A stretch of 51,284 nt of DNA, from positions 1-51,284 of the forward strand of contig JAZJZK010000019.1 in assembly GCA_040389905.1 (NCBI GenBank), given 5' to 3'. The DNA comes from Gemmatimonadota bacterium (lineage in GTDB: Bacteria; Gemmatimonadota; Gemmatimonadetes; Gemmatimonadales; Gemmatimonadaceae). Below, one piece after another: positions 23,937 through 51,284 of this stretch. The notes beneath the pieces were generated by a model that was given only the letters and a program-made list of their open reading frames with translations, did not search any database and was not told where the DNA came from. Every line of letters begins with the position of its first letter. Position 1 is the stretch's first letter. The position numbers and the translations under genes were made by a program.

Positions 23937-23937
23937 G

Positions 23938-25071: not shown

Positions 25072-25078
25072 TTGCGGG

Positions 25079-31175: not shown

Positions 31176-31200
31176 ATTATTGCCCCACGGAACTGCGTGC

Positions 31201-31263
31201 GTGCACGTCCTTCGCTTCGCTCAGGACAAGCGTGCAGATCCCTCGACTTCGCTCGGGGTGACA
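31201..31263. repeat. Family A composite / right half-element in the rsmH-yegS divergent promoter region
   Basis: GTGCAGATCCCTCGACTTCGCTCGGGGTGACA matches 1265-1296; preceded by CTTCGCTTCGCTCAGGACAAG. Confidence 0.88.
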
Positions 31264-31296
31264 TCCAAGGCGGCGCGCTCCAACCAACCTCCAATC

Positions 31297-33979: not shown

Positions 33980-34070
33980 AGTCGTAACCTCCAAAGCGTT
34001 AAACAGACGTACACCATATGAGCCGCGCTGGGTCCGCATGGCGATCACGGAATGAAAACACATCACAAAA

Positions 34071-34412: not shown

Positions 34413-34441
34413 AGTGTATTCCGGCCGTTTAGGGGTGTCAA
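34413..34441 (-). promoter_or_regulatory. Sigma70 promoter
   Basis: TTGACA (34441-34436), 17 nt, TACACT (34418-34413) on the minus strand. Confidence 0.85.
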
Positions 34442-34678: not shown

Positions 34679-35767
34679 TCACTTGGTCGAATTGTCCTGA
34701 TCCGAAGTATCGGTCGGATTGTCCGAATTCTCGCCCCCTTCGCCAATCAGCATCGCCAGCGCACTCTCCCGCTCCTCGCGCTCGGCCTTTTCGTCCGCGA
34801 CGAGCATCGCATCCAGTCGCCGCCGATTGCGCGCGCGCCGCGCGAAGGCGAACGGTGTGATCAGGATGCCGACCACCAGCATCGCGAGTGAGAAATCCGC
34901 GAACAGTGCGAGCCCGCCGTACCGCCGGCGCGTGCGCTCCTGAAAGAGGCGCTCGAAACCGTCCAGCGTGAGGCCGAATGCCTTTCGCATCGCCGCATCG
35001 AGCGCATGGCCGTGCCGCCAGTAATCGAAGAAGAGCGTCAGGCCACGCTCCCGGTCGAGTGACGCGAGCTCGATCACCGCGCGGTAGCTCAGCGCATATG
35101 AGGATTGTGCTGCCTGGGAGCCACGCTGAAAGCCCTCATCGAGGCGCGCAAGCGACGGGGTCCCGACGAGCGCCAGCCCGATATTGGCGGCGAGGACGTC
35201 CTCCCGTCGCCACTCCCGGGCAACCACGCTCGCGTAGCCTTCGTCGAACCACCGCGGCGGCTTGTTGCCGAGAAATTCGTGGAGCGCGAGGTGGGCGAGC
35301 TCGTGCCGAAGGACCTCGATCGGGTCCCCAGCCTCCGACGTCGCAACGCGCCCCTGCATGATGATCCGCCGCGATTCCGGGAACGCGATCGCGGCGCCCC
35401 ACTCGGGGGCACCGGGGCCAACCCAGGCACGAAAGCGCGACGCGTCCGGTGCGATCGCAATCAGGACCCGCTGGGAGGGGCGCGGCAACCAGGGAAAGCT
35501 GTCGTTGGCCACGGCGGCCTTGAGGAGCGAGCTCGCAAGCAAGTCGTCCTGTGGATAGAACACCGCCGTGAACCGGCCGGAGTCGAGCCGTCGCGGCGCA
35601 TCGTCCTGCGCAGCGACGGGGTGCGCAAGCAACGCGACCAGCAGCGCGACGCAAGCGAATGTGCGTCGCAGTGCTACGGCTCCCCGCCCTCTTCCACCGT
35701 CTTGAGCACCTCGGCGCACTTCTTTCCCCACGGATTGAACTTGTTGGCCGCGTACCCTTCGTGCCAC
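34679..35767 (-). CDS. Peptidase MA family zinc metallohydrolase (start uncertain)
   Basis: HELAH (HExxH), PRWFDEGYA, signal-like LLVALLAHPVAAQ, C-terminal TM. True start is probably near 35670-35720. Confidence 0.8.
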   Translation of the reverse strand: MARRVRGQQVQSVGKEVRRGAQDGGRGRGAVALRRTFACVALLVALLAHPVAAQDDAPRRLDSGRFTAVFYPQDDLLASSLLKAAVANDSFPWLPRPSQRVLIAIAPDASRFRAWVGPGAPEWGAAIAFPESRRIIMQGRVATSEAGDPIEVLRHELAHLALHEFLGNKPPRWFDEGYASVVAREWRREDVLAANIGLALVGTPSLARLDEGFQRGSQAAQSSYALSYRAVIELASLDRERGLTLFFDYWRHGHALDAAMRKAFGLTLDGFERLFQERTRRRYGGLALFADFSLAMLVVGILITPFAFARRARNRRRLDAMLVADEKAEREERESALAMLIGEGGENSDNPTDTSDQDNSTK

Positions 35768-36510
35768 GTCTGCAGCGCCTCGTCACGCTGCCCGTTGAAC
35801 CAGTAGGCGCGTCCGAGCTCGTAGTACGCTTCGATCAGGTTGGGGCCAAGGGCGAGCGTCTTCTGGAAGAAGGTTTGTGCGTCCTCGAACATGTCCCGCT
35901 CGAGATACACGAGCCCGAGGTAAAAGTGCGCGTACAGTGTGGCCTTCCGGTCGCTGTCCAACCGGATCGCGCGCGACAAGTGCTCGATCGCCTCACCGAA
36001 GATCCGCTTCTTGAGGCAGATGTAGCCCACGTTGATGCGCGCCAGGGCGTTCGCCGGCTCGCGCATCAGCACCTGCTGGAATTGCATGAGTGCTTCGTCG
36101 TACTTCTCCTGGAGCATCTGTGCCCAACCGAGGAGCGACACGGCCTGCGGGTCGTTCGGCACGAGCTGCAATGCCTTGGTCAGGCTCTCTTCAGCCCCTG
36201 GGTAGTCGCCGAGGGAAATCCGGCTCCAGCCCTTTTCGATGAACGTCGACGCGCCGATGTGATCGACGACGACGGGCCGCTCGGCGCTGAAGGCGGGCGC
36301 CAGATTCGCCTGCAACCCCTTCCAGCGCTCGACGAGCGCTTTCGCCTCATCCTTGAGCGCATTGAGATCCGCGAGATCCACCTCGAGCGCCTTGCCGAGG
36401 GCAATCAGGTCACCACGAATGGAGTCGCGGTCTGCCGCCGCATTGGGCGCATCAAGGCGCGCCGTCAGCGCAGCAATCCGTGCCCGGTGGGCGTCCACGA
36501 TCTCACCCAT
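35674..36510 (-). CDS. TPR protein with N-terminal coiled coil
   Basis: About five TPR repeats (KALQLVPNDPQAVSLLGWA, KTLALGPNLIEAYYELGRAY). Confidence 0.88.
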   Translation of the reverse strand: MGEIVDAHRARIAALTARLDAPNAAADRDSIRGDLIALGKALEVDLADLNALKDEAKALVERWKGLQANLAPAFSAERPVVVDHIGASTFIEKGWSRISLGDYPGAEESLTKALQLVPNDPQAVSLLGWAQMLQEKYDEALMQFQQVLMREPANALARINVGYICLKKRIFGEAIEHLSRAIRLDSDRKATLYAHFYLGLVYLERDMFEDAQTFFQKTLALGPNLIEAYYELGRAYWFNGQRDEALQTWHEGYAANKFNPWGKKCAEVLKTVEEGGEP

Positions 36511-36979
36511 GTGCCAGGGCCTCCGCTCCGGTATGCTGGAGCGCGATGCGCTCGGTCGATGTGAGCAGCTCGTCGACGTTGAGATAGATGACGAGACGCG
36601 AGCCGTGACGGACGATGCCTTTCAGGTACTCGCCGGCGAGCCCATGGAACATCTTCGGCGGCGGCTGCACGGCGGCGGGATCGAAGGAAGCGACTTCGGT
36701 GACCGAGTCCACGACCAGCGCGACCCATTCTCCACTGACGTTGAGGATGAGGATGCGCGTGTCATTGCCCGCATCGCGGGCGGGGAGCTCGAGCCGGCGG
36801 CGCAGATTCACCACCGGCACGACGCGGCCCTGGTAGTCCATGACGCCTTCGATGTACGGCGGGGTGTCCGGCACCGGTGTGGGTGCCGCGTAACGAAGCA
36901 CGCGCTCCACCGCCTGCACGTCCGCGGCGAAGTGATCGTCGCCAAGTCGGAACGCCACCAGCTTGTCTTTCTCGCTCAT
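36503..36979 (-). CDS. cheW: Chemotaxis adaptor CheW
   Basis: LVAFRLG, VPDTPPYIEGVMDYQGRVVPVVNLR, LVVDSVTEV. Start moved to ATG 36979 (ATGA overlap). Confidence 0.93.
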   Translation of the reverse strand: MSEKDKLVAFRLGDDHFAADVQAVERVLRYAAPTPVPDTPPYIEGVMDYQGRVVPVVNLRRRLELPARDAGNDTRILILNVSGEWVALVVDSVTEVASFDPAAVQPPPKMFHGLAGEYLKGIVRHGSRLVIYLNVDELLTSTERIALQHTGAEALAHG

Positions 36980-37671
36980 GCAATCTCCAGTAGAACCGCG
37001 GTCTGGCACGCCGAAACGAGCGCAGCGCCCGACAGCACCGTCACCAATGCGTCGCCCACCTGCGCGACACCCAGAACGAGCCCTTCATGCACCTCGACAC
37101 CCGGCGAACGGCGCACGTCGCGCATGTCGATGCTGATGGCATCCTCCACATCGTCGATGAGCACACCGACGAGCGCGCGTCCCTCTCGAAAGATGAGCAC
37201 TGCGTCGCGCAATGCGAGAGGCAACCCGAGCGCACCATGCGGTGAATAGACGGGCGTCAGGGCGCCGCGAACGGATACGACGCCGAGCATGGCCGGCGGC
37301 ATTTCCGGAACATGATGAATGACGGGGAGATCGATGACCTCCTCGACGTCCGACAGCGCAAGCGCGAAGCGTTCGCTGCCGACGCGGAACATCAGCAGGT
37401 CGGCGGTGCGCTTGATGGGGGCTGGTGGCGCAACACGCGGGGGCGGCGCTTCGCGAACCTTCTTCGCGAACGCGACGACGGGAACGGCGGGAGGTACAAC
37501 GACGGGAGGTGCAGACCCCTCGACTTCGCTCGGGGTGACAACCGCTTCGCCCGGGGTGACGACAACTTCGGGAACAGCGTGCGGTGCAGACCCCTCGACT
37601 TCGCTCGGGGTGACAACCGCTTCGCTCGGGGTGACAGCCAGTTCGCTATACCGAATCCGTTTTTTCTTCAT
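36976..37671 (-). CDS. cheW: CheW with Pro/Val-rich, repeat-derived N-terminal extension
   Basis: LLMFRVGSERFAL, VPEMPPAMLGVVSVRG, GVLIDDV; ATGA-coupled to the upstream gene. Confidence 0.88.
   Translation of the reverse strand: MKKKRIRYSELAVTPSEAVVTPSEVEGSAPHAVPEVVVTPGEAVVTPSEVEGSAPPVVVPPAVPVVAFAKKVREAPPPRVAPPAPIKRTADLLMFRVGSERFALALSDVEEVIDLPVIHHVPEMPPAMLGVVSVRGALTPVYSPHGALGLPLALRDAVLIFREGRALVGVLIDDVEDAISIDMRDVRRSPGVEVHEGLVLGVAQVGDALVTVLSGAALVSACQTAVLLEIA
37508..37636. repeat. Two 53-bp direct repeats derived from family A, inside cheW
   Basis: GGTGCAGACCCCTCGACTTCGCTCGGGGTGACAACCGCTTCGC(C/T)CGGGGTGAC at 37508 and 37583, 75-bp period. Confidence 0.92.
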
Positions 37672-38468
37672 TCCTGATCGTCCGCCACGTCGAACATCAG
37701 TTCCCCATCGATCGACGCCAGTTTGCGCATCGCACCCACGAAGAGCGCCTGCGTCGCGAGGGTATTGATCCGACGCGGAATTCCGGCGCTCCGCGCCGCC
37801 AGCGCCGTAAACGCGTCATCCGTGAAAATACGCACCCCGTTCCACCCGGCGACGGTGAGCCGATGCTCGACATAGCCGCGCACTTCGTCCGCCTCCATCG
37901 GCTCGACGTGGAAGCGCAGGCTCACCCGCTGATCGATCTGCGGTCGCTTTCGAATGCGATCGCGCAACTCCGGCTGGCCGAGCAGGATGACGTGCAGGTG
38001 CTTGTCCTGCCGGCCCTCGTAGTTGCTGAACAGGCGGATCTCCTCCAGCAAGGAAGGACTCGCGAGCTGCGCCTCATCCACGATCAACACCGGCCTCCGC
38101 CCCGCGTCATGCAACTCACCGAGACGCACGCCGAGCGCCTCGACCAAGGCGAGCTTGCCGCGTGGTGCCTTGTCCAGCCCGACACCGGCCGCAACGGTCG
38201 CGAGGAGCTGGGTCGGAGTGACCTTGGGGTACGACAAGACGATGACGTCGCACGATGTTCCTGACAGACGATCGGCCAACGCACGCGCCAGCATCGTCTT
38301 GCCGCAGCCGATTTCGCCAGTAATGAGCGACAGCCCGCCGCGTAGGTCCGTCGCGTCGTACAGCAGCCGCGCGTATCCCTCTGCGAACGTGGGCGATTGA
38401 TACACGAAATCCGGATCGGGCGTGTTCGCAAAGGCCCGGCGGGAGAGCTTCCAGTGCGCTTCGATCAT
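37668..38468 (-). CDS. ExeA/GspA/MshM-like AAA ATPase
   Basis: FANTPDP, TGEIGCGKT, LIVDEAQ, LLGQPEL, GIPRRIN. Start moved to ATG 38468 (ATGA overlap with cheB). Confidence 0.9.
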   Translation of the reverse strand: MIEAHWKLSRRAFANTPDPDFVYQSPTFAEGYARLLYDATDLRGGLSLITGEIGCGKTMLARALADRLSGTSCDVIVLSYPKVTPTQLLATVAAGVGLDKAPRGKLALVEALGVRLGELHDAGRRPVLIVDEAQLASPSLLEEIRLFSNYEGRQDKHLHVILLGQPELRDRIRKRPQIDQRVSLRFHVEPMEADEVRGYVEHRLTVAGWNGVRIFTDDAFTALAARSAGIPRRINTLATQALFVGAMRKLASIDGELMFDVADDQE

Positions 38469-39544
38469 CCGAGGGCGCTCCGCCGCGTGACGAGCAACTG
38501 GAGAATGGACGGCGCGACGTCCCCAAGGTTGCACACGCGATCGGCGCCGGCACGCTGGAAGGCCGCCAGCGGCATTCCGTATATGGTCGACGTCTCCCTG
38601 TCTTGAACGACGCCACTGCCACCAGCGTCCCGGATGGCGTGGAGCCCTTCTGATCCGTCGCGCCCCATCCCCGTCAGCACCACGCCGATCGACTGACGCC
38701 CGAATGCGGCGGCCACCGAAGTGAAAAGCGGGTCCGCAGCTGGGCGTACACCCCACATGGTGGGCCCTTCATCCAATACAATCTGGTGCGCTCCAGCAGA
38801 CTTGTGACGGACGCGCATGTGTTGGCCGCCTGGCGCCAGATAGACGCGATTCGCCTGCACGGCCTCTCCTTCCTGCGCTTCCGCCACGCGGAGGTGGCTC
38901 ATCGAGTCCAGACGGCTGGCGAGGCTGCGCGTGAAGCCAGCCGGCATATGCTGTACGACGAAGACGGCCGCATCGAGGTCCGCCGGCAAGTTCGGAATCA
39001 CCTCTGCCAGCGCGCGCGGACCACCCGTCGATGCCGCGATCGCGACTGCCCACGTCGCACCTGTACCGGTCGATTGCCGTGCACTGGTATCCACGAAGCG
39101 GGGACGCGCCAGCAACTGGACGCCGCCGAGATTGACCTGCGTCGCCGCGTGTAGCGCCGCGATGAGCGTCTCACCCACGCGCTCCAGATCCAGACTGATC
39201 GGTCCCGATGGCTTGCGAACGAAATCGATGGCGCCGATCTCGAGGCAGCGGAGCGTCAGGTCGGCGCCGCCGTCGGATCCCGCCGCGCTCAGCATGACCA
39301 CGGGACGCGGCGTCTCGCTCATGATGTAGCCGAGCGTCTGAAGCCCGTCCAACTCGGGCATCTCCACATCGAGCGTGACGATCTGCGGATCGAGGGAGTG
39401 AATCTGACGGAGCGCGTCGAGCCCGTTGCGCGCTGTCCCCACGACCCGAAAGTCCGGCGAAGCATCGATAATCTGGCTGATCATGCGCCGCATGAAGGCG
39501 CTGTCATCAACCACGAGTACCGACGCCGGCCGGCTAGATGACAC
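38465..39544 (-). CDS. cheB: Chemotaxis methylesterase CheB (REC + methylesterase)
   Basis: VVDDS, LDVEMP; catalytic motifs ASTGGP, QHMP, LTGMGRDG. Confidence 0.97.
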   Translation of the reverse strand: MSSSRPASVLVVDDSAFMRRMISQIIDASPDFRVVGTARNGLDALRQIHSLDPQIVTLDVEMPELDGLQTLGYIMSETPRPVVMLSAAGSDGGADLTLRCLEIGAIDFVRKPSGPISLDLERVGETLIAALHAATQVNLGGVQLLARPRFVDTSARQSTGTGATWAVAIAASTGGPRALAEVIPNLPADLDAAVFVVQHMPAGFTRSLASRLDSMSHLRVAEAQEGEAVQANRVYLAPGGQHMRVRHKSAGAHQIVLDEGPTMWGVRPAADPLFTSVAAAFGRQSIGVVLTGMGRDGSEGLHAIRDAGGSGVVQDRETSTIYGMPLAAFQRAGADRVCNLGDVAPSILQLLVTRRSALG

Positions 39545-40034
39545 GGTCGCCCTTCTTCAGCGAACGCACTTCGACGCGTCCGTCGTCGAGAAAGAAGTAC
39601 ACACTGCGACCGTAGTCCAGCCCGGTATCTTCGGCGAGCAGGGGAATCCCCGCACTGGCGAGCACTTCGCGCGTTGCCGCGACGTTCCGCTCGCCGACGT
39701 TGATGCCGTTGCCGGAAACCAGCGTGCCGAACATGCTTGCACCTCCCACGATCTTGGCGCTGATCCGCGCCGCGGGTGACGAGCCCAGCTTCCGCATCTC
39801 TGCGAGCATGACTGGGACGATCGTCTCCGGAAACTTGGCAGGATTGGCTGTCTCCCGCGACATGGCCTGGTTGGGAAGCAGGATGTGCGCGAGCCCGCCG
39901 ACCTTCGCCTCACGGTCATATAGCGCAATCGCCACGCAGGACCCCAGTCCGATCGTGGCGAGGACATGCTCCCCACGACGGACCGCGTAGTCCGCCACCT
40001 TCACGCGCACGTCCATCACCGGTGGAGCGCTCAC
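39534..40034 (-). CDS. cheD: Chemoreceptor glutamine deamidase CheD
   Basis: GLGSCV, GGLAHILLP, KIVGGASMF, NVGERN. Confidence 0.95.
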   Translation of the reverse strand: MSAPPVMDVRVKVADYAVRRGEHVLATIGLGSCVAIALYDREAKVGGLAHILLPNQAMSRETANPAKFPETIVPVMLAEMRKLGSSPAARISAKIVGGASMFGTLVSGNGINVGERNVAATREVLASAGIPLLAEDTGLDYGRSVYFFLDDGRVEVRSLKKGDRVI

Positions 40035-40849
40035 AGGGGCCGGAACACGCGTTCACGTCCGTCCACGGCCACGAAGCGCGTGCGTGCCGCGCCAAGCAGC
40101 GTCTCCACCTTGCCCAGCACGAGGAAGCCATTCGGCGCCAGCGCCGAGTGGAATTTCTCGAACAACCGTTCCTGTGTTTCCCGATCGAAGTAGATGAGCA
40201 CGTTGCGGCAGCAGATCAGATGGTGCACGCCGGGCGGCGGAGACTCGGCGAGGAGGTCGCGACGCTCGAAGCGGACGAGACGTCGCACGTCGGCGTCGAT
40301 CGTGAACGGCGCCGCCGGAGCAAAGTATCGGCGCCGGAGCTCGTCTGGTGTATCGGCGAAATCGCCCTCCTCGAAGGTGCCCGTCTCCGCCGCCGCCAGG
40401 CATCGGGCATCGATATCGCTCCCGAGCACGCGCACCCGGCGCGCGACGGCATCGAGCTGCCCGATCTTTTCCGCGTGACGGTGAAACAGGGCGGCGAGGG
40501 AATAGGGCTCTTCGCCGGAAGAGCAGCCGGCGCTCCAGACGTTGATCGTCGGAATGGGACGCTCCCACAGCGCCGGCACGACCTTCTCGGCGATGACGGC
40601 GTAGGTCTCCCAGTTCCGAAAGAGCTTGGTGACGTTGATCGTGAGCGCGTCGAGCAGGCGCTCATACTCTGCGCTGTCAGCGTCGAGCACTCGCGCGTAG
40701 TCCGCATAGGTATGGACGCCGCGCGCGCGCATTCTTACGGCAATGCGGCGACGCAAGCACTTTTCCTTGTAGCTCGCGCAGCCAAACCCTTTGTCGCGCG
40801 AAATCTTGTCGGTCAACTCGAGAAAGCCGGCGTCCGTCAGGTCGCTCAC
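40031..40849 (-). CDS. cheR: Chemotaxis methyltransferase CheR
   Basis: TINVTKLFR, WSAGCSSGEEPYS, CRNVLIYFD. Confidence 0.97.
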   Translation of the reverse strand: MSDLTDAGFLELTDKISRDKGFGCASYKEKCLRRRIAVRMRARGVHTYADYARVLDADSAEYERLLDALTINVTKLFRNWETYAVIAEKVVPALWERPIPTINVWSAGCSSGEEPYSLAALFHRHAEKIGQLDAVARRVRVLGSDIDARCLAAAETGTFEEGDFADTPDELRRRYFAPAAPFTIDADVRRLVRFERRDLLAESPPPGVHHLICCRNVLIYFDRETQERLFEKFHSALAPNGFLVLGKVETLLGAARTRFVAVDGRERVFRPL

Positions 40850-42469
40850 CTAGAGCACCTGCCGGACAGCTTCGAGGTTGGTCCGTACGATCGCATTGCC
40901 CGGGTCGAGGACGAGCGCCTGCTCCCAGCACCGAACGGCTTCTTCACGCTCCTGCCGCTTGAAGCGAATGTTGCCGAGCTTGAGGTACACGTCGTCTCCG
41001 AGAGATGCGTTGAGCTTGATGGCGCGTTGGTAACATTCGAGCGCCTCATCATAGCGTGCAGCGCGATAATGCTGATCACCGAGATTTTTGTGGAGCTGCG
41101 GCAAGCCGGTGTCTTCCTGCACGCCACGCTCCGCCGCCTGCATTGCTTCCGGATGATACCCACGGCGCTCCTGCACGGCCGCCATGTTGTTGTGCAATGG
41201 CGCGGCGTGCGGATGCGCCGCAATCCCTTCGAGCAGCAGCGAGTGCGCACGCTCCAGGTCACCGAGCAGCGCGGCGGTCAGCGCCGAATAGTGGAACCAC
41301 GGTGCCGTGGGCGGTCGCGTACCGAACAATGGACGCGCCGCGAGGAGTGCGGAGTCCGCAGTCATGACGTCGCCAGCCCGCAACGCGACGACGCCCAGTG
41401 ACGTCTGGATGCGGGGATCCTTGGCGCCACCGCGGCGCACCGCACCGTCGAGCGCGGCCTTCGCCTCTTCGTAGCGACCGAGCCGCTCGAGCGCGTGCGC
41501 GAGATTGTGGTACGCTGCCGGCCGCGCACCAGGCTGACCGACGCAATCGCGGAAGGCGGCCACTGCTTCGTTCCATTTCGCCTGGCGCATGAGCGCGAGA
41601 CCAATGTAGAAGCGCGCTTCAGCGTCGTGCTCGCGGAGCTCCGTGACGCGGCGAAACTCGCGCATCGCCTCGTCGAGCATACCCGTCTTGTAAAACGCGA
41701 TGCCGAGGTTGCGGTGCTCGTCGACGCGCGCGTCGCTCACGGCGGGCTCCACCGCCTTGCTCTTCCCGATTCGGTGTGCGAAGCCGGCGGTGACGAGGCC
41801 ATAAATCGCCTTACCGACGTCGAACTCGCCGAGGCCGGAGTCCTCGATGACGGCGGTGACATCACGCCGGCCGTCGAGCAACTCCATGACGGCCTGCTGG
41901 TCTTTCGTCAGCTCGACGCCGCTCTCATCGAGCTTGGTGTGATCGACGTCGAAGACGAGATCGAGGCTCGAGATTTTCTTCTCGATCAGGCTCCATTCGT
42001 CCACGCGACGCGCACCCTCGAGCAGGAGCGACTCGGGATTGATCGACACGAGGAGGTCCTGCTCTTCCGGGCGGACGTCCGCCTCGAAGTTGAACGTCCC
42101 CTGCGTCCACGTGAACAGATAGTAGACGGCTTCCTCGATCTGGAGACGGATCTGCGCATACAGGATTTCGCGGGTGACCGCGCCCTGCGCGATGAGCAGT
42201 TCGCCGATGCGCTTGTCGCGGTGCAGCGACTGCGCGCTGATCGCCGAGTCGAGCTGCGCCTGCGTAATCGCGCCGCCCTTCAGCAGAATGTCGCCGAGCC
42301 GATCGCGACGATTCACGATCGACGCGTACGAGATCAAGCCCTTGTCGAAATAGACATAGCCGAAGTTGTTCCTGTGCGTAACGGCCAGGCACCCCGACTT
42401 CTTCCCCATCGAGAGAAGCTGGAGGACATCGGGAAGACTCGCTTCCTTGAGGCTGCCCTTGATCGCCAT
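40850..42469 (-). CDS. DUF4388 (PATAN-like) + MshEN-like + TPR protein
   Basis: GSLKEASLPDVLQLL, WTQGTFNFE, LLLEGARRVDEW; tandem RLG/RIG motifs; C-terminal TPRs. Start moved to ATG 42469 (TAATG overlap). Confidence 0.85.
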   Translation of the reverse strand: MAIKGSLKEASLPDVLQLLSMGKKSGCLAVTHRNNFGYVYFDKGLISYASIVNRRDRLGDILLKGGAITQAQLDSAISAQSLHRDKRIGELLIAQGAVTREILYAQIRLQIEEAVYYLFTWTQGTFNFEADVRPEEQDLLVSINPESLLLEGARRVDEWSLIEKKISSLDLVFDVDHTKLDESGVELTKDQQAVMELLDGRRDVTAVIEDSGLGEFDVGKAIYGLVTAGFAHRIGKSKAVEPAVSDARVDEHRNLGIAFYKTGMLDEAMREFRRVTELREHDAEARFYIGLALMRQAKWNEAVAAFRDCVGQPGARPAAYHNLAHALERLGRYEEAKAALDGAVRRGGAKDPRIQTSLGVVALRAGDVMTADSALLAARPLFGTRPPTAPWFHYSALTAALLGDLERAHSLLLEGIAAHPHAAPLHNNMAAVQERRGYHPEAMQAAERGVQEDTGLPQLHKNLGDQHYRAARYDEALECYQRAIKLNASLGDDVYLKLGNIRFKRQEREEAVRCWEQALVLDPGNAIVRTNLEAVRQVL

Positions 42470-44391
42470 TAGCGGAGCTCCTCGACGAGACGCCCAGCGA
42501 CGTCGGGCCACTCCCAGACGATCTTCTCATCATCGAGGAAGAAGGTATCGGCGGCTTGTCGCACGCTCAGTGGCGCGGTCGAGGGTGTGAGCCCCGATGG
42601 CTCGAGCACCTTCCGCGCGGCCAGCAGGTTGAGCGGGCCGCCGGTGACCTCGAGTCCCGCGCGCAGCCGCTGCACCGTTCCCATCAACTCGCGCACGCTC
42701 GCGGCCGGCCGGTCGGCGAGGTAGGCAACGAGCTCGGTCGGCGCGTCGAGTCGTGCGTCGGCGAGAAAACGCACGAAGAGTTTCTCGCGCAGCGCGCGGT
42801 CCGGAAGGCTCAGCTCCGCGACGAGCCCGCCCTCGAAGCGCGAGCGCAGGCGATCCTCGAGACCGTTCATCGCCTTCGGCGACACGTCGCTCGCAAAGAC
42901 CAGTTGCTTGCCGGCGGCGTGAAAGTGATTGAAGACGTGAAACAGCTCTTCCTGCGTGCGCTCCTTCGACGCGACGAACTGCACATCGTCGATGAGCAGC
43001 GCATCCGCGGCGCGATAGCGGGCCCGGAAGCGCTCGATCGTGCCGTCCTGGAGCGACGCAATCAGTTCGTCGATGAAGAGTTGCGCGCTGACGCACGCGA
43101 TCCGCCCGGGCACATCCGACCTGGCCGCCAGTTCATTGCCGATCGCGTTGAGGAGGTGCGTCTTCCCCACCCCGCTCGGACCAAGCAGGAACAGGGGATT
43201 GTATCGGTGCCCTGGCTCCGAAATGACGGCGTCGGCTGCGCGCACCGCCATCTGATTCGAGCTTCCTTCCTCGAAGGCGGCACGCGCAAAGGCGGGTTGC
43301 GGTCCACCAGGAGGCACAGCGCCGGCAAGCGCGTGTTCGACGAACGCCATTGCTTCGCTCAGACGTGCCGGATCGCGAAACAGCTCATGCCCGCCGAGCC
43401 GAGGATCGACGGTCGTGATTTGCCGTTCGAGCTCGCGCAACTGCTCCACCGCCTGGCCGAAGCCGCGCAGCACGGACTCGTAGTTCGGCGGCGGCGCAGC
43501 CTGCGCCATCATGTGGTCGAGCACGCCGGTCTTGTACCCTTCGCCCCCCCAGAAGGCGATCGCCTCACCGATGTGCACCTTCCACGGCTCGACATGTGCC
43601 GCGACAGCGCTTGCGATGTCCGTGAGAAAGTTGAAAAACTCGTCGGTCTCGATCGACGTGCGGGCGGGTGGCGGCGCCGGTTCCGGGATGCCCGCGAGCG
43701 CGCGCACCTGTGCGGGCGTGAGCGTACCGTCGAGTGCCTGATGCGCGCTCAGCTTGTTCATGGCGCCTTGCAGCTCGCGGATGTTCGCGAACTCGACGCG
43801 GGCCAACTCCTCGATGACGCCAGGCGCGAAGGAGATTTTCCGCTCTTCGCACTTGCCGCGCAGGATGGCAACGCGCGTCTCGAAATCGGGCGCCCCGATG
43901 TCGACGATCAGGCCGCCGCTCAGGCGGCTGATCAGCCGCTCGTCCACGTCGGAGATCTCCGCCGGCGGACGGTCGCTCGTCATGATGATCTGGCGGCCGC
44001 TTCCCTGCAGCGAGTTCAGGAGCCGCAGGAGCTCGCTCTGCGTCTCACGGCGGCCGGTGAGGAACTGGACATCATCGACGAGCAGAATGTCCACGCGCCC
44101 ATAGCGCTGCTTGAAGCGCTCCATCTCGCCCGAGGCGATGGCGGCGTGCAACTGCTGGACGAAGTCTTCGAGCGCCACGTATTCGACGCTCAACTCCGGC
44201 GCGCGCTGAATCGCGTGATTGCCAATGGCACCGATCAGGTGCGTCTTGCCGAGCCCCGAACTGCTGTAGATGAAGAGCGGGTTATACACCTGGCCCGGAG
44301 ACTCCGACACCGCGCGCGCCGCCGCGACGGCAAGCCTGTTGGCCGTGCCGACAACGTAATTATCGAAGCGCGCGCGCGGATCGACCTGCAT
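42469..44391 (-). CDS. Tandem DnaA/Hda-type AAA+ protein (two ATPase domains, no DnaA domain I or IV)
   Basis: Copy 1: YNPLFIYSSSGLGKTHL, LVDDVQF, RLISRL, NIRELQG. Copy 2: YNPLFLLGPSGVGKTHL, LIDDVQF, RLRSRF, SVRELMG. Start moved to ATG 44391 after the mglA stop. Confidence 0.9.
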   Translation of the reverse strand: MQVDPRARFDNYVVGTANRLAVAAARAVSESPGQVYNPLFIYSSSGLGKTHLIGAIGNHAIQRAPELSVEYVALEDFVQQLHAAIASGEMERFKQRYGRVDILLVDDVQFLTGRRETQSELLRLLNSLQGSGRQIIMTSDRPPAEISDVDERLISRLSGGLIVDIGAPDFETRVAILRGKCEERKISFAPGVIEELARVEFANIRELQGAMNKLSAHQALDGTLTPAQVRALAGIPEPAPPPARTSIETDEFFNFLTDIASAVAAHVEPWKVHIGEAIAFWGGEGYKTGVLDHMMAQAAPPPNYESVLRGFGQAVEQLRELERQITTVDPRLGGHELFRDPARLSEAMAFVEHALAGAVPPGGPQPAFARAAFEEGSSNQMAVRAADAVISEPGHRYNPLFLLGPSGVGKTHLLNAIGNELAARSDVPGRIACVSAQLFIDELIASLQDGTIERFRARYRAADALLIDDVQFVASKERTQEELFHVFNHFHAAGKQLVFASDVSPKAMNGLEDRLRSRFEGGLVAELSLPDRALREKLFVRFLADARLDAPTELVAYLADRPAASVRELMGTVQRLRAGLEVTGGPLNLLAARKVLEPSGLTPSTAPLSVRQAADTFFLDDEKIVWEWPDVAGRLVEELR

Positions 44392-44393
44392 GC

Positions 44394-45008
44394 CTACTTC
44401 GTCGCCCCCGCGGGTGCGGAACCCGCACTGAGGCGGCGCAGCACGATTTCCGATATGCCGCGCAGGGTTTCGAACACCCCAGGTCCGTGGAGCGCGTCCG
44501 CAGGAAACTCGGGAACGTCCCGAAAATTGATGGCGTCGGACAATTCGCTCACCGGAAGAATCAGGTCGGCGGGAAGGTCCTGCTTGTTGTACTGGACAAC
44601 GAGCGGCATCACGCGTGGATCGATGCCCTGATCGGACAGATTGGCGTGGAGATCCTGAAAGCTCTCGATGTTCTCCTCGAGCTGGCGCGCCTGGCTGTCG
44701 GCAACGAAGACCACGCCGTCCGCACCTTGCAGCACCAGCCGGCGGGTCGTCTGGTAGTACACCTGGCCGGGCACCGTGTAGAGCTGGAATTTCGTGGTGA
44801 AGCCGGAGATCGAGCCGAGGTCGAGGGGAAGGAAGTCGAAGAACAGTGTCCGGTCGGTCTGCGTCGCCAGGGACACCATTTTCCCTTTCCGCTCCTCCGG
44901 AACCTGACTGTAGATATAGTGCAAATTCGTCGTTTTCCCCGAGCGACCAGGCCCGTAGTAGACGATCTTGCAAGTAATCTCGCGCGTGGCGTAGTTGACG
45001 AGCGACAC
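44394..45008 (-). CDS. mglA: MglA small GTPase
   Basis: KIVYYGPGRSGKTTNL, TDRTLFFDFLP, YTVPGQ, YNKQDL; closely follows the myxobacterial MglA pattern. Confidence 0.96.
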   Translation of the reverse strand: MSLVNYATREITCKIVYYGPGRSGKTTNLHYIYSQVPEERKGKMVSLATQTDRTLFFDFLPLDLGSISGFTTKFQLYTVPGQVYYQTTRRLVLQGADGVVFVADSQARQLEENIESFQDLHANLSDQGIDPRVMPLVVQYNKQDLPADLILPVSELSDAINFRDVPEFPADALHGPGVFETLRGISEIVLRRLSAGSAPAGATK

Positions 45009-45035
45009 GAGGTAGTCGGGTAGCGCGGTTGCGGC

Positions 45036-45509
45036 CTAAGCGCGGCCGAAAAGGACAGCGAGGTTGCGATTCAGATCCCGCTCGAAATGCTCCGCGAGCG
45101 CCGGAGCGGGCGCGGGACCATCCGGCGGTGCGGCTGCCGCCAATCCTGCGACCAACTCGTCAAAATACAGTCGAACCAGCCCGAGCGAGCTTTCGTGCCC
45201 GAACACCGTCAGGAAAATGTACGCGCCGCGCGGCGACCGTGCTTCTGCAATGAATATTTGGCGGACGCGGCCCGCATGGTGCAACCCCCCGAACGGCCGG
45301 TCATCGACGAGTCGTCCCAGCGCCACGCTCGTGGCATGAATGCCAGCCGCGAGCGCGCATGCCGACATGACATCGACGGAGCGGGTGAAGCCATGCTGCG
45401 CAAGCACGTGCCCGCTGGGGTGCAGCAGCAGTGCGAGGTGCACGCCCGCATCATCCACAAACTGGCGGAGGGGCGCCTCGATCCACGACTCGACGACGGT
45501 GGTATTCAC
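45036..45509 (-). CDS. mglB: MglB-like roadblock/LC7 protein (GAP)
   Basis: ALAAGIHATSVALGRLV...F...HHAG...SSLGLVRL resembles MglB; immediately upstream of mglA. Confidence 0.8.
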   Translation of the reverse strand: MNTTVVESWIEAPLRQFVDDAGVHLALLLHPSGHVLAQHGFTRSVDVMSACALAAGIHATSVALGRLVDDRPFGGLHHAGRVRQIFIAEARSPRGAYIFLTVFGHESSLGLVRLYFDELVAGLAAAAPPDGPAPAPALAEHFERDLNRNLAVLFGRA

Positions 45510-45880
45510 CGTTCCGCACCTCGAGCAATGACCGCGAGCTCGGAGATCGCACGCAACATTTCCACTCGCACCATGCCCACATTGACCGCGGTCTTTGCCA
45601 CGACGACGAGCACCAGTTCACCCGACCCCACTGCGCAAATACGGCCCACCGGCGCCTCGAGCTGCATGAATGAGACGGCGCCCATTCCCGCGGCGCGGGC
45701 GGACAGCCGCGCCTTGCGGTACAGCGACGCAGCCAGCGCAGCGACGCGATCCTCGGCAAGGCCGATGTGCAGATTGCCGTCGATCACGATGCCGTCCTGC
45801 TCGCTGACGACCAGCGCGGCCGTTACGCCACGCTGCCGGGAAAGCGTCTGTAGCATCCCGGCGAACGGGCTCGCCATCAT
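45506..45880 (-). CDS. Roadblock/LC7 domain protein
   Basis: GVTAALVVSEQDGIVI, VAALAASL, NVGMVRVEM; start ATG 45880 (GGAGG SD, ATGA overlap). Confidence 0.85.
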   Translation of the reverse strand: MMASPFAGMLQTLSRQRGVTAALVVSEQDGIVIDGNLHIGLAEDRVAALAASLYRKARLSARAAGMGAVSFMQLEAPVGRICAVGSGELVLVVVAKTAVNVGMVRVEMLRAISELAVIARGAER

Positions 45881-46692
45881 ACCCCACCTCCAAGCCAGGC
45901 AGCGGCGCGCGCTGCGCACCGGTCGCTCAGCCGGCGCACCAGGCCGAGCGGGGTGGCACGCGACGTTGCGAGCAGCAACAAGCCGTCCTGTCCAGCCGGC
46001 GCCATGGCGACAACTGCGACCTCCGTCTCGAAGATGATCGACGTCCAATCGCCCATCGCCAGGTGACGCGTGGCACGGCGCGCGGCATCGGTGACGCCAC
46101 TCAACTCGGCGCCGATATCCTGACCCACGTCCGTTCCGTCCGCATCGTAGTACGCGCCGGCAAGCACAAAACCCTGGCTGTCGAGCAGGAGCGCCGTCTG
46201 CCCTTCTTCATTCAGGACGTCGGCGAACAGGTAGCGACTGTCCTTGGCGAGCGAGGCAGGTACGACGGAGGCCGGCGCGCGGGGTGGAGTGGCACGCTGC
46301 TCTCGCAGGTGCTCGAGGGCGCTTGCCAGCTCTCGGTCGAGCGGATCCGCTGTCGCAGCGGCGGCAAGGTACCGTTCCGCGTCGGCAAATCGCCCTCCGT
46401 GAAAACAGAGAAAGCCCATGCCCTTGAGCGCGCCGAGATGCGCGGGCGCGAGGCGAAGGACCATGTCCCACTCATCGAACGCGCGCTCGAGTTCGCCCCG
46501 ATCCGCACTGATCCGCGCGAGCAAATCATGCCCGTCGGCGAAGTGCGGATGCCGCTCCAGTCCACGAAGCGCCACCTTGAGCGCCAGATCGGTCTGCCCC
46601 TGACGACGGAGGGCGTCACCCAAGGGCACGAATACGCGACTCCCTGGATCGCGCGCCAGCTCTTCGCTCATTCGCGTGATCTCGTCAGCCAT
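45877..46692 (-). CDS. TPR + roadblock/LC7 fusion protein
   Basis: DPGSRVFVPLGDALRRQG TPR N-terminus; ALLLDSQGFVLAG...PLGLVRR roadblock C-terminus. Confidence 0.82.
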   Translation of the reverse strand: MADEITRMSEELARDPGSRVFVPLGDALRRQGQTDLALKVALRGLERHPHFADGHDLLARISADRGELERAFDEWDMVLRLAPAHLGALKGMGFLCFHGGRFADAERYLAAAATADPLDRELASALEHLREQRATPPRAPASVVPASLAKDSRYLFADVLNEEGQTALLLDSQGFVLAGAYYDADGTDVGQDIGAELSGVTDAARRATRHLAMGDWTSIIFETEVAVVAMAPAGQDGLLLLATSRATPLGLVRRLSDRCAARAAAWLGGGV

Positions 46693-47818
46693 CCGCGTGC
46701 GCCTCGAGCATGTGCTGGAGCCGCGTGAGCAGTTCCAACGCGGCGTTCACGCGAGAAACCTGCGGCGACGCCGGCGCGAGCCGGATAAAGTGCTCCCAAC
46801 TCGCGCGCGCGTTCGCGAAATCGCCAACTCGAAGCGCGGCGAAACCCAGATCGAGGTGGACCTCGGGCGTGATGGGATCGGCCTGCACCGCGCGCCGAAG
46901 CTCCTCGACCGCCTCGACAGCGCGCGAGAGGCGGCCTAGCGCCCGCGCCACGAGCAATCGGGCGTCAGTCGAATCGCGTCCGGTCTCGATGGCGGCACGA
47001 GCGCGCGCAATCGCCTCCTCGTAGTGCCCCGCGTCGAACGCCTCCTGCGCTTCGAGGATGACCTTGGTTTCCAAGTCCACGACACGCGTGCGTGTGGACG
47101 CGTGCTCGTGGGCCCGGACCGTCGCGACACCGGTGCTGATCAGACCATACGCAATCCTCGCGATGTCGAACTCGCTCGAGCCGAGCGCGCCGGCGATGTC
47201 CCGGAGGTCCCGTTCGCCATCGATCATCATGAGGACCTGCCACTCATGCGGCAGGAGATCCAGCATCGCCGACCGATCGTCGTCAACGGGTGCCAGCATC
47301 GGCACGATGCCCAGGCTCGGTACCTTGTCCGCGATGCGCGACCACTCGTCGATGCGGCGGGCACCTTCCATCAGCAACGATTCGGTCGAGATACGAATCC
47401 GTGCATCGAGCGGCACATCATTGACGGGACGCTCTTCGAACGAAAAGAATCCCTCGCGCCACGACATCAGCTCGAAGATCACGTTCTCGATCGCCAGCCT
47501 GAGCTGCCGCTCGAGCTCGCGTTGCGTGATGACGCGCGCCATGACGAGCCGGTCGCCCAAGCCAGGACCATCGCCGAGCGCCGCGGCCGCCGCGAGTTCG
47601 GCGTCGTTGATCCGTCCAGCCTGGCGAAGGATCCGCTCGATCGAGGTGGGATTGCTCTGGATGCTCGCGTGAATGACGCGGCCACCGTCGAACAGCACGA
47701 TGCCCTCGTCATCGCGCAGCTCCGACGTGACACGCAGCGCGCCCGTCTTCCGGCTCAGGTCGAGCAGCTGAAAGACGTCGTGGATTCCGAGCTCGCGCAG
47801 CGGCCCTTCGATCGCCAT
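46685..47818 (-). CDS. DUF4388 + TPR protein
   Basis: GPLRELGIHDVFQLL, WREGFFSFE, LLMEGARRIDEW; paralogous to 40850-42469. Confidence 0.85.
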   Translation of the reverse strand: MAIEGPLRELGIHDVFQLLDLSRKTGALRVTSELRDDEGIVLFDGGRVIHASIQSNPTSIERILRQAGRINDAELAAAAALGDGPGLGDRLVMARVITQRELERQLRLAIENVIFELMSWREGFFSFEERPVNDVPLDARIRISTESLLMEGARRIDEWSRIADKVPSLGIVPMLAPVDDDRSAMLDLLPHEWQVLMMIDGERDLRDIAGALGSSEFDIARIAYGLISTGVATVRAHEHASTRTRVVDLETKVILEAQEAFDAGHYEEAIARARAAIETGRDSTDARLLVARALGRLSRAVEAVEELRRAVQADPITPEVHLDLGFAALRVGDFANARASWEHFIRLAPASPQVSRVNAALELLTRLQHMLEAHADG

Positions 47819-47820
47819 GC

Positions 47821-50529
47821 TCAGCCCCCCTTGGCGGCGAAGATCGCCTGGAGGTCGGACGCGGTCCGCACATCACGACGGGCCCTGCGCGCAAACTCGC
47901 CTGCGGGATCGAGATCGATCACGCGCTCCCACCGCGCAATCGCGTCGCGGAAGCGCTTGCGTTCATTGAGAATCATTCCGTCGTAGTACAGCGCCCCGAC
48001 GTGCGATGGGTCGAATCGCAGAATACGCCGGAACGCCTTCATCGCGTCGCGCGGATTCCCCAACATCAAGAGCGTTTCGCCGAGCGCCAACAGGGCCTCG
48101 AAATGATAGGGATCGCGTTCGAGCAAGGCGATCAACTGCTCCAGGGCAGACTCGGCGCGGCCGGCCGCGCGACGCATGGACGCGAGTTCGAGCGTGGCTT
48201 CCGCGTACGTGGGCACGGCATCCAACGCCGCTTCCAATTCGTTTTCCGCTTCCCGCAACTGCCCCTTCGCGCGCAGCAGCCGCGCGAGCTGGAAGCGCAC
48301 GACGGCAAACTCACTATCGAGCTCCAACGCATGCCGATACGCCGTCATCGCCCCTTCGTTGTCACCGAGCGCGCGCGCGATGTCGCCGATGCGCTGATGC
48401 ACGTCAGGGCGGTGTGGCGCCAGCTTGCGCGCCGACTCGAGCGCGTCGAGCGCGCCGGCGGGATTCCCCGTATCTGCGCGCGCCCCTGCGACGAGCATGA
48501 CCGCCTCGACCATACCTGGCTGTGCAGCGGCGATCTCTTCGGCGATCGGAAGTGACTCGCGGGCGCGCCCCATCGCCAGAAGCGCCAGCGCTTCGCCAAT
48601 ACGTGGGCGTATCGCGCTGGGATCGGCGCTCCGTGCCTCACGGTAGCGCTCGATGGCTTCGCCGTGGACGCCCTGTCGCGCGTAGATGTCGCCGAGCAGC
48701 GTGTAGCCCTCCGCGGGCGACGCACCGCGCGACAGGGCGCGACTTACCTCTGCGGCCGCACGGTCGACGAGCCCCATGCCGAGATAGTCGACGGCCATGG
48801 CGTATGGATCGCTCGAGTCCTTCGCTGCACCCGACGCGGCGTCCGCCGCAGCCTCCGTCGGCGCCAGCGAGGTGAAGAGCGTATCGAGCACCGCGGAGTC
48901 GAACGAAAAATCCTCCACGGAATCATCGAGGCGGTGCACGGCGCCGAGATCGGGCTTGATCGAGAGGTCAGGATCCTCGTACTCGAGATCGATCGCAAGC
49001 TCGAACTTCTGCGCGACGTAATACGGGTCGAGCTCGAGCGCGCGCTTGGTCTCGCGGAGCGCACCTTCGAAATCACCGAGATGTGAGAGCGCAAAGCTCA
49101 GGTTGTAATGCGCCTCGGCCAGATCGGGGTTGGATTGCACGGCGCGCGCGAATGCATTGCGCGCATCCTCGAATCGCCGGAGCTCGTTGAGCACGAGACC
49201 GACGCCGTTCCACGCGGCCGCATCCTCGGGCACGCGCTCGAGGACGCTCCGGTACGCTTCGAGCGCAAGCTGAAATCGCTTTCCCTTCGCGAGCAGCAAC
49301 GCCAGATTCAATCGCGCTTTGACGAAGCCAGGCTGCGCTTTTAGCGCGTCCCAGAATGCCTCGATGGCGCCGTCCGTTTCTCCACAGTGATAGAGCGCGA
49401 CTCCGAGGTTGTTGAGCGCGAGTGAATAGCCGGGCTCCGCCTGCGTCGCGCGCCGGTAACTGTCGCGCGCCTCGGGAAAATTTCCGTCCTGATGGAGCGC
49501 GACGCCCCGTTCGTTCCAGAGCTTTGGGCTGATTGGCGCGAGCGCGAGCAGTTCGTCGTACAGCGCGACGGCCGCCTTTGGCTCTCGGCGCAGCAAATGG
49601 ACTTCCGCCATCGCTTGAAGGACGAGCGGACGATCTTCTCCCCGTTCGAGCGCCTTCGCATACTCGCGCAGGGCTTCGCCGTAATACCCCTTTTGCCGGA
49701 AGGCCAGACCGAGGTTGAACTGCGCGAGTTGTCCTTCGGCCAGCGATTCCATGGGCACGCGCATCGAGCCGCGGCTCGGCGTGTCCGTCGTTCTCCGCTG
49801 CGCCCGTCGCTCGTCGATCGCGAGATTCGCCTGCGCACGCGAGAGTGTGGGGTTGAGCTGGATCGCTCGTCTCGTGACGTCGCGCGCCTCTTCATGCAAG
49901 CCGAGGTCGCCGAGCACGAAGCCCATCAGGTAATAGGCATCCGGATTGGACGGATTGAGCTCGATGGCGCGGCGCAAGGCGGACAGGGCACCTTCGTTCA
50001 CGCCGCGATTGTACAGCACCTCGCCGATGTAGAAGTTGACGACCGACGATGACGGGTCGAGCGTCAGCGCGCGTTCGAGGTAGCCCAGCGCCTTATCCAG
50101 GTCCCCGTTCGTGCGCTCGGCCAGTGCGAGCTGCACCATGGCTCCGGTGTCACCAGGGTGATATCGAAGCAACTCGCCGAATGACTCCGCGGCTTCTGCC
50201 GCCTGACCGAGCAAGGCGTGGATCCGGCCGAGTTCCCAACGTGTATCGCGGTCGTCGGGTTTTGCGCGGAGGCGCTCCATGAGCTCGCCGACGCGTTTGT
50301 CGTAATACCCTGTGTTGAAGTACGCGATCTCGAGGTTGCGCTGGGCCACCTGCATCTTCGCGTCCAGCTCCAACGCGCGCATGAAGGCGGCAACGGACTC
50401 CTCATAGAGTCCCTTGTTGTAATAGAGAACGCCCAGGTTGTTGTGCGCGCCGGCATCCGATGGATCGATGCGCCGCGCGAACGACCGGAGTACGTCGCGA
50501 TCCCGTTCAGATGTGAGAGGCGTATCCAT
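47821..50529 (-). CDS. Large multi-TPR protein (902 aa)
   Basis: Numerous canonical TPRs (AHNNLGVLYY, RAIELNP, AHYNLSFAL) in about three arrays. Confidence 0.92.
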   Translation of the reverse strand: MDTPLTSERDRDVLRSFARRIDPSDAGAHNNLGVLYYNKGLYEESVAAFMRALELDAKMQVAQRNLEIAYFNTGYYDKRVGELMERLRAKPDDRDTRWELGRIHALLGQAAEAAESFGELLRYHPGDTGAMVQLALAERTNGDLDKALGYLERALTLDPSSSVVNFYIGEVLYNRGVNEGALSALRRAIELNPSNPDAYYLMGFVLGDLGLHEEARDVTRRAIQLNPTLSRAQANLAIDERRAQRRTTDTPSRGSMRVPMESLAEGQLAQFNLGLAFRQKGYYGEALREYAKALERGEDRPLVLQAMAEVHLLRREPKAAVALYDELLALAPISPKLWNERGVALHQDGNFPEARDSYRRATQAEPGYSLALNNLGVALYHCGETDGAIEAFWDALKAQPGFVKARLNLALLLAKGKRFQLALEAYRSVLERVPEDAAAWNGVGLVLNELRRFEDARNAFARAVQSNPDLAEAHYNLSFALSHLGDFEGALRETKRALELDPYYVAQKFELAIDLEYEDPDLSIKPDLGAVHRLDDSVEDFSFDSAVLDTLFTSLAPTEAAADAASGAAKDSSDPYAMAVDYLGMGLVDRAAAEVSRALSRGASPAEGYTLLGDIYARQGVHGEAIERYREARSADPSAIRPRIGEALALLAMGRARESLPIAEEIAAAQPGMVEAVMLVAGARADTGNPAGALDALESARKLAPHRPDVHQRIGDIARALGDNEGAMTAYRHALELDSEFAVVRFQLARLLRAKGQLREAENELEAALDAVPTYAEATLELASMRRAAGRAESALEQLIALLERDPYHFEALLALGETLLMLGNPRDAMKAFRRILRFDPSHVGALYYDGMILNERKRFRDAIARWERVIDLDPAGEFARRARRDVRTASDLQAIFAAKGG

Positions 50530-50570
50530 TTTACTGGACCCGACTCCGCGGCAAGAGGCGAACGGACTTT

Positions 50571-50686
50571 ACCGCAGAGGGCGCAGAGGAGCAGAGGACC
50601 GCAGAGGAAAAGCGGAAAAGCCAAATGGCCTCCTGGCTCTTTCTGGTCTCCTTTGCGTTCCTCTGCTCCTCTGCGCCCTCTGCGGT
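50571..50686. repeat. Family B hairpin inside the che operon
   Basis: Perfect 28-bp inverted repeat ACCGCAGAGGGCGCAGAGGAGCAGAGGA (50571-50598 / 50659-50686). Confidence 0.92.
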
Positions 50687-50736
50687 CAAAACGAGACGCA
50701 TCGCCGACTGAAACAGACTGCCTCCTACGGACATAC

Positions 50737-51284
50737 CTACGCGACCCGCACTGCCCGAAGAATGGCCTGCAACGACGCAGGATCGGGAAGCAACAAGAAG
50801 AATCCGCGCAGTTTCTCCCCCACATCATGCATGAAGAATTCGCTCTCGACGCAGAAGACATAGTCCTTGTCGGAGCCGAATTGCAGGTAGGCCGTCGTGA
50901 GCACCGCGTCGCTCATGTCGATCGCCAGTGACGGTGGCGATGGGAGGAGCATCATCCCCATGAAATCGCTCAACGCGTTCATGTACGCGCTGCTGAGGAT
51001 GTTTCCCGCCTCCTTGATCGCGGACTGTTCCATCTCCCCGAGATCATGGCTCGTGCCCACGGGGCGGCGGAGCATCAACTCCGCCAGGCGCATCGCGGTG
51101 CCTTTGGGAAAGACGAGGAGCGTACGCCCGGTCAAGTCGCCCATCATGTGCATCAAGACCGCAGCCACCGGCTCTTCCGGTGCCGAGATTTGCGGAGGAA
51201 CCTCCTCCAGCCGCGAGATGTTGATCGTCGGCACGCTGATCATGATGGTGCTGTTGATCATCTGCGAGAGCGCCGTCGCCGCGT
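50737..51284 (-). CDS. cheC: CheY-P phosphatase CheC (5' end outside window)
   Basis: Frame is open to the window edge (AATALSQMI...SVP); SAIKEAGNILSSAYMNALS ExxN motif; PSPPSLAIDM. Confidence 0.92.
   Translation of the reverse strand, partial: AATALSQMINSTIMISVPTINISRLEEVPPQISAPEEPVAAVLMHMMGDLTGRTLLVFPKGTAMRLAELMLRRPVGTSHDLGEMEQSAIKEAGNILSSAYMNALSDFMGMMLLPSPPSLAIDMSDAVLTTAYLQFGSDKDYVFCVESEFFMHDVGEKLRGFFLLLPDPASLQAILRAVRVA

Follow-up and report, generated by a model that had tools for sequence, protein, structure and literature searches.

How might chemosensory signalling be joined to a polarity switch within a single bacterial locus? The question is raised by a 51,284-nucleotide (nt) stretch of DNA from a Gemmatimonadota bacterium of the family Gemmatimonadaceae (assembly GCA_040389905.1, contig JAZJZK010000019.1), which was analysed whole and is referred to here as the window; it makes up the entire contig, C19 below. 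All 17 open reading frames (ORFs) listed between positions 34679 and 51282 lie on the minus strand. A sequence-only reading had described them as 17 co-oriented genes with chemosensory, tetratricopeptide repeat (TPR), DUF4388 (PATAN), roadblock, MglA and DnaA-like domains, and Pfam and NCBIfam scans bear out each one. The 17 make up the last part of a cluster of 20 genes that is kept across the Gemmatimonadales and their close kin. The arrangement is real, conserved and undescribed, but its parts are of known kinds, and its output is one that we infer.

The head of the cluster lies on another contig. The last 55 nt of C19 are identical to the end of contig C30, and this 55-nt word occurs at these two places only. 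C30 ends with the order ileS-dksA-lspA-rluA-cheW-cheY-cheA followed by the start of cheC, and the cluster therefore counts 20 genes. It had been proposed that CheA, CheY and a methyl-accepting chemotaxis protein (MCP) might lie upstream and that the upstream sequence should be obtained; through the unique overlap, CheW, CheY and CheA are indeed found directly upstream, but no MCP is, the nine receptors of this genome being elsewhere. The order of the cluster is as follows, with counts from 36 clusters that were read in six families (26 picked by MglA and 10 as likely variants):

C30:83062-83538, past the window end: cheW
C30:83550-83912, past the window end: cheY
C30:83977-85944, past the window end: cheA, with Hpt, P2, dimerisation, kinase (HATPase) and CheW domains and no receiver
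50737..51282, minus strand: cheC phosphatase, 3' part, with its start on C30 (Pfam, NCBIfam)
47821..50529, minus strand: TPR900, 902 residues, all TPR, candidate MglA effector or scaffold (Pfam; 33 of 36 clusters)
46685..47818, minus strand: DUF4388/PATAN-TPR protein a, a paralogue of protein b with no MshEN match (33 of 36)
45877..46692, minus strand: TPR-roadblock fusion (Pfam; 30 of 36)
45506..45880, minus strand: stand-alone roadblock/LC7 protein (Pfam; 29 of 36)
45036..45509, minus strand: MglB-like roadblock protein, likely a GTPase-activating protein (NCBIfam, PDB match; 30 of 36)
44394..45008, minus strand: MglA-family small GTPase, second paralogue (33 of 36)
42469..44391, minus strand: tandem AAA+ ATPase of the DnaA domain III type, 640 residues, with a helical middle domain and no DnaA DNA-binding domain
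40850..42469, minus strand: DUF4388/PATAN-MshEN-TPR protein b, proposed hub (Pfam, NCBIfam; 36 of 36)
40031..40849, minus strand: cheR (Pfam, alignment)
39534..40034, minus strand: cheD (Pfam, NCBIfam, alignment)
38465..39544, minus strand: cheB, receiver and methylesterase (Pfam, NCBIfam, alignment)
37668..38468, minus strand: ExeA-like AAA_22 ATPase, lineage-specific accessory (Pfam, NCBIfam)
36976..37671, minus strand: cheW, its N-terminal part overlapping two copies of a multi-copy repeat (Pfam)
36503..36979, minus strand: cheW (Pfam)
35674..36510, minus strand: TPR278, a 278-residue TPR protein, conserved core (Pfam, alignment; 32 of 36)
34679..35677, minus strand: Peptidase_MA_2 zinc peptidase with hydrophobic ends, last gene, approximate start (29 of 36)

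From TPR900 to the peptidase, neighbouring genes are separated by −11 to +27 nt, the start of the peptidase being approximate. The sole large gap, of 207 nt, lies between cheC and TPR900 and is filled by a repeat:

50568..50689, no strand: palindromic repeat with 56-nt arms, a multi-copy genomic element outside the system

This palindrome occurs at about 83 places in the genome, and the orthologous gap has a median of 6 nt in 30 clusters; an operon break at this point was considered and rejected on both grounds. A second, different repeat at 37498-37645, with about 137 places in the genome, stands in frame at the start of a cheW ORF, the true start of which may be later. Promoter and terminator scans gave results at chance level, with 3 sites against 2.2 expected and 11 against 11.8 expected, respectively.

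The cluster is not peculiar to this genome, which is estimated to be 84.6% complete. In a search set of 151 genomes of the phylum, 98 (this genome not counted) encode a close full-length MglA. A CheA gene lies less than 10 kb upstream on the same strand in 82 of these 98; it is on another contig in nine, and no cluster CheA is listed in the remaining seven. Gene order is uniform in all 36 clusters, 28 of which have both cheA and mglA, and the named relatives are Gemmatimonadota. The synteny proposed as a test of the arrangement is thus present. In all six families read, the MglA block sits within the che gene set rather than beside it. The array follows the housekeeping genes ileS-dksA-lspA-rluA with little or no gap and, in most clusters, is placed between divIVA-ileS and the dcw genes. 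DUF4388 is found in 109 of the 151 genomes, with one of 23 in families f6 and f7 and none of 16 in f9 to f12. In alignments of 23 to 37 rows, catalytic positions are conserved in MglA, CheY, CheC, CheD, CheB, CheR, both AAA+ domains and the peptidase, which upholds the earlier view that the CheR, CheB, CheD and MglA motifs are intact. The ExeA-like gene had been counted as a member, but it is an accessory outside the core: it is present in two of the 36 broadly sampled clusters and in 23 of 72 loci from a set enriched for close relatives.

What kind of chemosensory system is it? The F1 class, to which we take both the Myxococcus Dif and the Dif-like clusters of Geobacter to belong, is marked by a CheA of Hpt-P2-dimer-HATPase-CheW architecture without a receiver, by CheC and CheD, and by receptors of the 44H type. 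All of these features are found here, the receptors being classed by length as a proxy. Three of the nine receptors are short and belong to other che clusters (156–158 residues after the tip block), whereas all six orphans have at least 170; each arm of their signalling domain is longer by about 14 residues, which is the difference expected between the 40H and 44H classes, with length as the sole proxy for the 44H assignment. In five genomes that have a single CheA match each, the long class accounts for 11 of 12 receptors. None of the 36 clusters contains a receptor gene, and no receptor match was found in G105, G108, G145, G066 or G035, the five genomes in which the che genes of the cluster have been lost or shortened. 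The three further che clusters of this genome (C30:55141-63568, C20:78454-85745 and C9:21888-28036) each have their own short receptor, and the CheA of the first carries a receiver domain. One orphan receptor (C10:82210-84294), which has orthologues in G016, G023 and G123, combines a GAF domain with roughly six predicted membrane helices.

The chemosensory part thus resembles the F1/Dif type by its domain content and not Frz, with which it had first been compared: the FrzE kinase has a receiver and no P2, and the cluster CheA is the opposite on both counts. Architecture, the presence of CheC and CheD, and receptor length support this placement. In NCBIfam, the best CheA match is CheA_Halo, a haloarchaeal model, with 487 bits, against 379 for PRK10547, both below cut-off; CheC and CheD have their best matches in Thermotogales models, likewise below cut-off. 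In M. xanthus, a kinase built in this way, the order cheW-cheY-cheA and receptors of the 44H class are features of Dif rather than Frz (PMC3945109). The likeness to Dif and Dif-like clusters extends to the cheW-cheY-cheA-cheC order, the P2-containing CheA, CheC and CheD and the long 44H-like receptors. In the dif order, difG presumably takes the place of cheC. However, no receptor is encoded in the present cluster, CheR, CheB and three CheW proteins are included, and genes for MglA, roadblock, PATAN and ATPase proteins are inserted. The main text on the Dif-like clusters makes no mention of MglA, a GTPase, PATAN or TPR (PMC2577667).

The inserted GTPase matches MglA at E 1e-73, retains the P-loop, the intrinsic arginine and the switch II glutamine, and adjoins a roadblock gene. 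The other mglA paralogue of this genome is in the dnaX-ybaB-recR region (C7:262256). The MglB assignment is weak in Pfam (E 0.009), while MglB chains in the PDB are matched at E 1e-7. Group 1 MglA has been reported from Gemmatimonadetes, with some mglA genes near PATAN genes (PMC4316618). As in the MglA/MglB-SgmX module of M. xanthus, MglA and MglB homologues occur side by side with extra roadblocks and large TPR proteins; there, however, mglA is away from its partner genes (PMC4316618), and here it is the second paralogue that is involved. In three loci (L125, L126 and L127, of G034, G103 and G033), a decayed MglA, possibly a pseudo-GTPase, is kept beside MglB and a shortened TPR protein.

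Protein b is the only gene kept in all 36 clusters, including the variants without che genes or without MglA. Its PATAN domain contains a second feature:

42155..42301, minus strand: MshEN-type motif within the PATAN domain of protein b, predicted to bind cyclic diguanylate (c-di-GMP) (NF053729, 43–47 bits, cut-off 38)

The 53-residue tandem motif is above the model cut-off and present in 33 of 37 aligned rows; in this genome, it is found in PilB and protein b only. With the SgmX model, protein b reaches a mere 19 bits, the cut-off being 1800. It resembles the cyanobacterial PatA-type regulators (PixE, PixG, LsiR), in which a PATAN/DUF4388 domain with a helical insert is encoded with chemosensory genes, but TPR repeats take the place of their receiver domain. 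PATAN domains bind PilB1 and PilC in a Synechocystis two-hybrid study (10.1101/2021.06.11.447907), and MglA-GTP binds the TPR protein SgmX, thereby activating pili (PMC7668184). From these precedents and the MshEN motif shared with PilB, we infer a pilus output; PilB (C9:41017), PilT and PilM are all present in this genome.

Next to protein b lies the tandem ATPase. A single-sequence fold was poor (predicted local distance difference test score, pLDDT, 45), and an alignment-based model (pLDDT 91) was used instead. It has two DnaA domain III folds around a helical domain and no DNA-binding domain, and compares with the B. subtilis DnaA structure 8bv3 at 42% identity and a template-modelling score of 0.93 over the target. 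The Walker A, Walker B and arginine-finger positions are kept in both AAA+ domains, while Bac_DnaA_C has no match in the ATPase or at any cluster position. The protein shares the DnaA domain III fold with DnaA and Hda but differs from them in its tandem AAA+ domains, the missing DNA-binding domain, an added helical middle domain and two motifs to which it can be reduced. On the Hda model TIGR03420, it scores 167.9 against a cut-off of 194.8 and, with two AAA+ domains, it falls outside that family. Since dnaA was not found in this genome (84.6% complete), the ATPase was considered as a replacement for DnaA, which was rejected: 146 of the 151 genomes carry canonical dnaA as a gene of its own. 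Both tandem forms that bear a taxon name among 20 divergent representatives looked up are from Gemmatimonadota, and atlas clusters of the tandem form are commonest there.

In five genomes (G032, G048, G068, G070 and G110), the ATPase is replaced by an ORF of 60–86 residues directly before protein b; one such mini-protein, of 60 residues, is encoded at L128:11744-11926 on the minus strand. This mini-protein consists of the two best conserved non-ATPase stretches of the ATPase, residues 250–271 and 617–642 here:

43585..43650, minus strand: motif 1, amphipathic helix 3' of the first AAA+ domain, kept in the mini-protein
42472..42549, minus strand: motif 2, C-terminal tail rich in tryptophan, likewise retained by the mini-protein

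A profile of the five mini-proteins matches 103 of the 151 genomes. The match is in one piece in those five and G043 alone; elsewhere it mostly falls within long frames. Six genomes in all have a mini-protein and can dispense with the ATPase domains. A database search returned 953 short matches, of which the best 120 are 60–78 residues long without a Pfam domain; the others may include fragments. With a profile from this short-match family, both motifs are recovered in 26 of 32 ATPases, and no other six-frame ORF of this genome is hit. Because the mini-protein keeps only the two motifs, they are likely the docking site of the ATPase. Both fall in the lowest-confidence parts of the otherwise confident model, as binding motifs often do. 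Three shorter ATPase forms (L110, L113 and L115, of G045, G102 and G093) keep both motifs with the second AAA+ domain missing or divergent. Two proteins of 1876 and 1990 residues (P0175 and P0180) have two DnaA-like stretches each and are possibly assembly fusions.

The ATPase domains and MshEN are absent together in a minority of loci. Among 164 loci scored, 125 have a full ATPase and an MshEN-bearing protein b, 24 have the mini-protein and an MshEN-less one, and one (G110) has the mini-protein with MshEN; 10 at contig edges and four mis-picked paralogues were dropped. A quick tree of 90 de-duplicated rows groups the MshEN-less forms in one clade and places G110 apart from it. Repeated co-evolution was rejected on this tree, and the mini-protein may have a single origin despite the placement of G110.

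Which parts belong together is also seen from natural deletions. G066 retains che remnants only, G035 has a short CheA, and G033, G034 and G103 lack cheR, cheD and cheB. TPR278 is missing from four of the 36 clusters, of which one is a true loss, one a contig end and two are not resolved. The halves are separable yet share a core: the motif pair, protein b and TPR278 are present in both reduced forms.

What, then, could the cluster do? The preferred reading, held at about even chances and by analogy with the systems above, is that a complete F1/Dif-like pathway interleaved with a second MglA module likely controls where and when type IVa pili extend. Orphan receptors of the long class would signal through CheW to CheA and CheY, with adaptation by CheR, CheB, CheD and CheC. 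MglA-GTP, restrained by up to three roadblock proteins, would bind the TPR proteins and mark one cell pole. The che and MglA inputs, plus c-di-GMP on the MshEN insert, would converge on protein b and TPR278 and from there on the PilB/PilC motor, while the ATPase, docked on this hub via its two short motifs, would add an optional nucleotide-dependent oligomer or timer.

Several observations weigh against this reading. Three variants (G105, G108 and G145) lack any che gene, and G068 and G070 lack everything from TPR900 through mglA; with the halves lost independently, a linear che-to-MglA relay is weakened. Of the integrated relay first proposed, what stands is one conserved, tightly packed array in which a full chemosensory pathway is joined with an MglA/roadblock module, PATAN-TPR proteins and a DnaA-like ATPase that lacks a DNA-binding domain. 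The nucleotide-binding positions of MglA are decayed in three of 34 rows (G033, G034 and G103), and the cluster MglA has no adjacent roadblock gene in G063, G090 and G099 (L077, L080 and L118). The joint loss of MshEN and the ATPase domains, forming one clade, counts as one event and thus as weak evidence. PilM occurs in 143 of the 151 genomes, including lineages without the cluster, so the proposed check on co-occurrence with pil genes does not test the pilus link or discriminate either way. Finally, the cluster CheA is the only match (E 1e-40) in 10 of 28 flagellated cluster-bearing genomes, with at most eight candidates scored per genome.

A more ambitious version is tentative, with clearly less than even chances. 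It would make the cluster an undescribed chemosensory class in which a DnaA-derived double AAA+ ATPase acts as a scaffold, docks via its two motifs on a c-di-GMP-binding PATAN-TPR hub and brings kinase, Ras-like GTPase and second-messenger inputs together to set polarity for pili and possibly budding division, the 60–78-residue mini-protein being a stripped-down adaptor.

Somewhat less probable again is control of exopolysaccharide or adhesion, with the pathway acting downstream of pili as Myxococcus Dif does and the MglA, TPR and PATAN parts positioning or gating it. The gene order runs parallel to that of difC-difD-difE (locus tags 6694-6692); DifE, too, contains P2 and lacks a receiver, and DifA is a 44H receptor (PMC3945109). 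The gene set is also that of the Dif-like clusters in Geobacter (PMC2577667). However, unlike dif, the cluster has no receptor, no polysaccharide gene is among its conserved members, and the PATAN and MglA precedents favour the pilus motor.

It is improbable that the che and MglA/PATAN genes are two functionally separate modules that share a transcript without direct wiring. The independent loss of either half and the position directly behind ileS-dksA-lspA-rluA would agree with such a passive association, but the MglA block is inside the che set in all six families, and both reduced forms retain the same core.

More doubtful still is a role in cell-cycle or budding polarity, in which the DnaA-derived ATPase would regulate the start of replication, for instance through attachment to filaments of DnaA, or the choice of division site, under MglA. 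Its intact ATP-binding positions and DnaA fold, together with the location between divIVA-ileS and dcw, speak for such a role; yet six genomes manage without the ATPase domains while retaining the motifs, canonical dnaA is nearly always present, most f6, f7 and f9 to f12 genomes have no DUF4388 match, and the flanking gene order may be simply ancestral.

The least probable idea, that the cluster is a flagellar chemotaxis system by ancestry and continues to steer flagella in genomes that have them, has its F1-like components and the sole CheA of those 10 flagellated genomes in its favour, but the cluster is not mainly flagellar: FliG is found in 39 of the 151 genomes and absent from 62 of the 82 with linked CheA and MglA, no FliG or rod protein matched in this genome (84.6% complete), CheY identity stays at 77–99% whether or not FliG is present, and many flagellated genomes have a second CheA 19–45 kb from fliG.

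The earlier statement that no characterisation of the arrangement is known agrees with the full-text literature, in which no description was found (subscription journals were outside the coverage, and table S2 of PMC4316618 may list the neighbourhood). No account of the cluster appears in the parts consulted of PMC13747009, PMC10782961 (where Gemmatimonad goes unmentioned) and PMC9862903. A link between SofG and the dif locus was considered, but the literature searched did not support it and it is not relied on here.

Further features lie in the remainder of the window. Downstream on the same strand lies an ordinary dcw cluster (rsmH to ftsZ, window 14320-31175), preceded by a conserved 603-residue TPR protein (32255-34066). 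Among sigma-70-like sites in this region, the best one (10 of 12 positions, 34413-34441, minus strand) is upstream of this TPR gene and not of the cluster. A YegS-like lipid kinase (window 31168-32199) is on the plus strand, against the direction of its neighbours, and is present in only two other regions read. Five ORFs (window 4352-5947, 6054-6872, 7573-7947, 9862-11025 and 11115-12914) have no Pfam match at E 1e-5.

Gemmatimonadota are abundant in soil, and no study of the control of their surface motility was found in the literature. Here, one locus unites the types of components that in Myxococcus are dispersed around the genome, and the cluster therefore names candidate links from a chemosensory kinase to an MglA switch. 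It also appears to show a replication-initiator ATPase put to new use in signalling. The natural deletions point to a core of three parts (motif pair, protein b and TPR278), small enough for testing in vitro.

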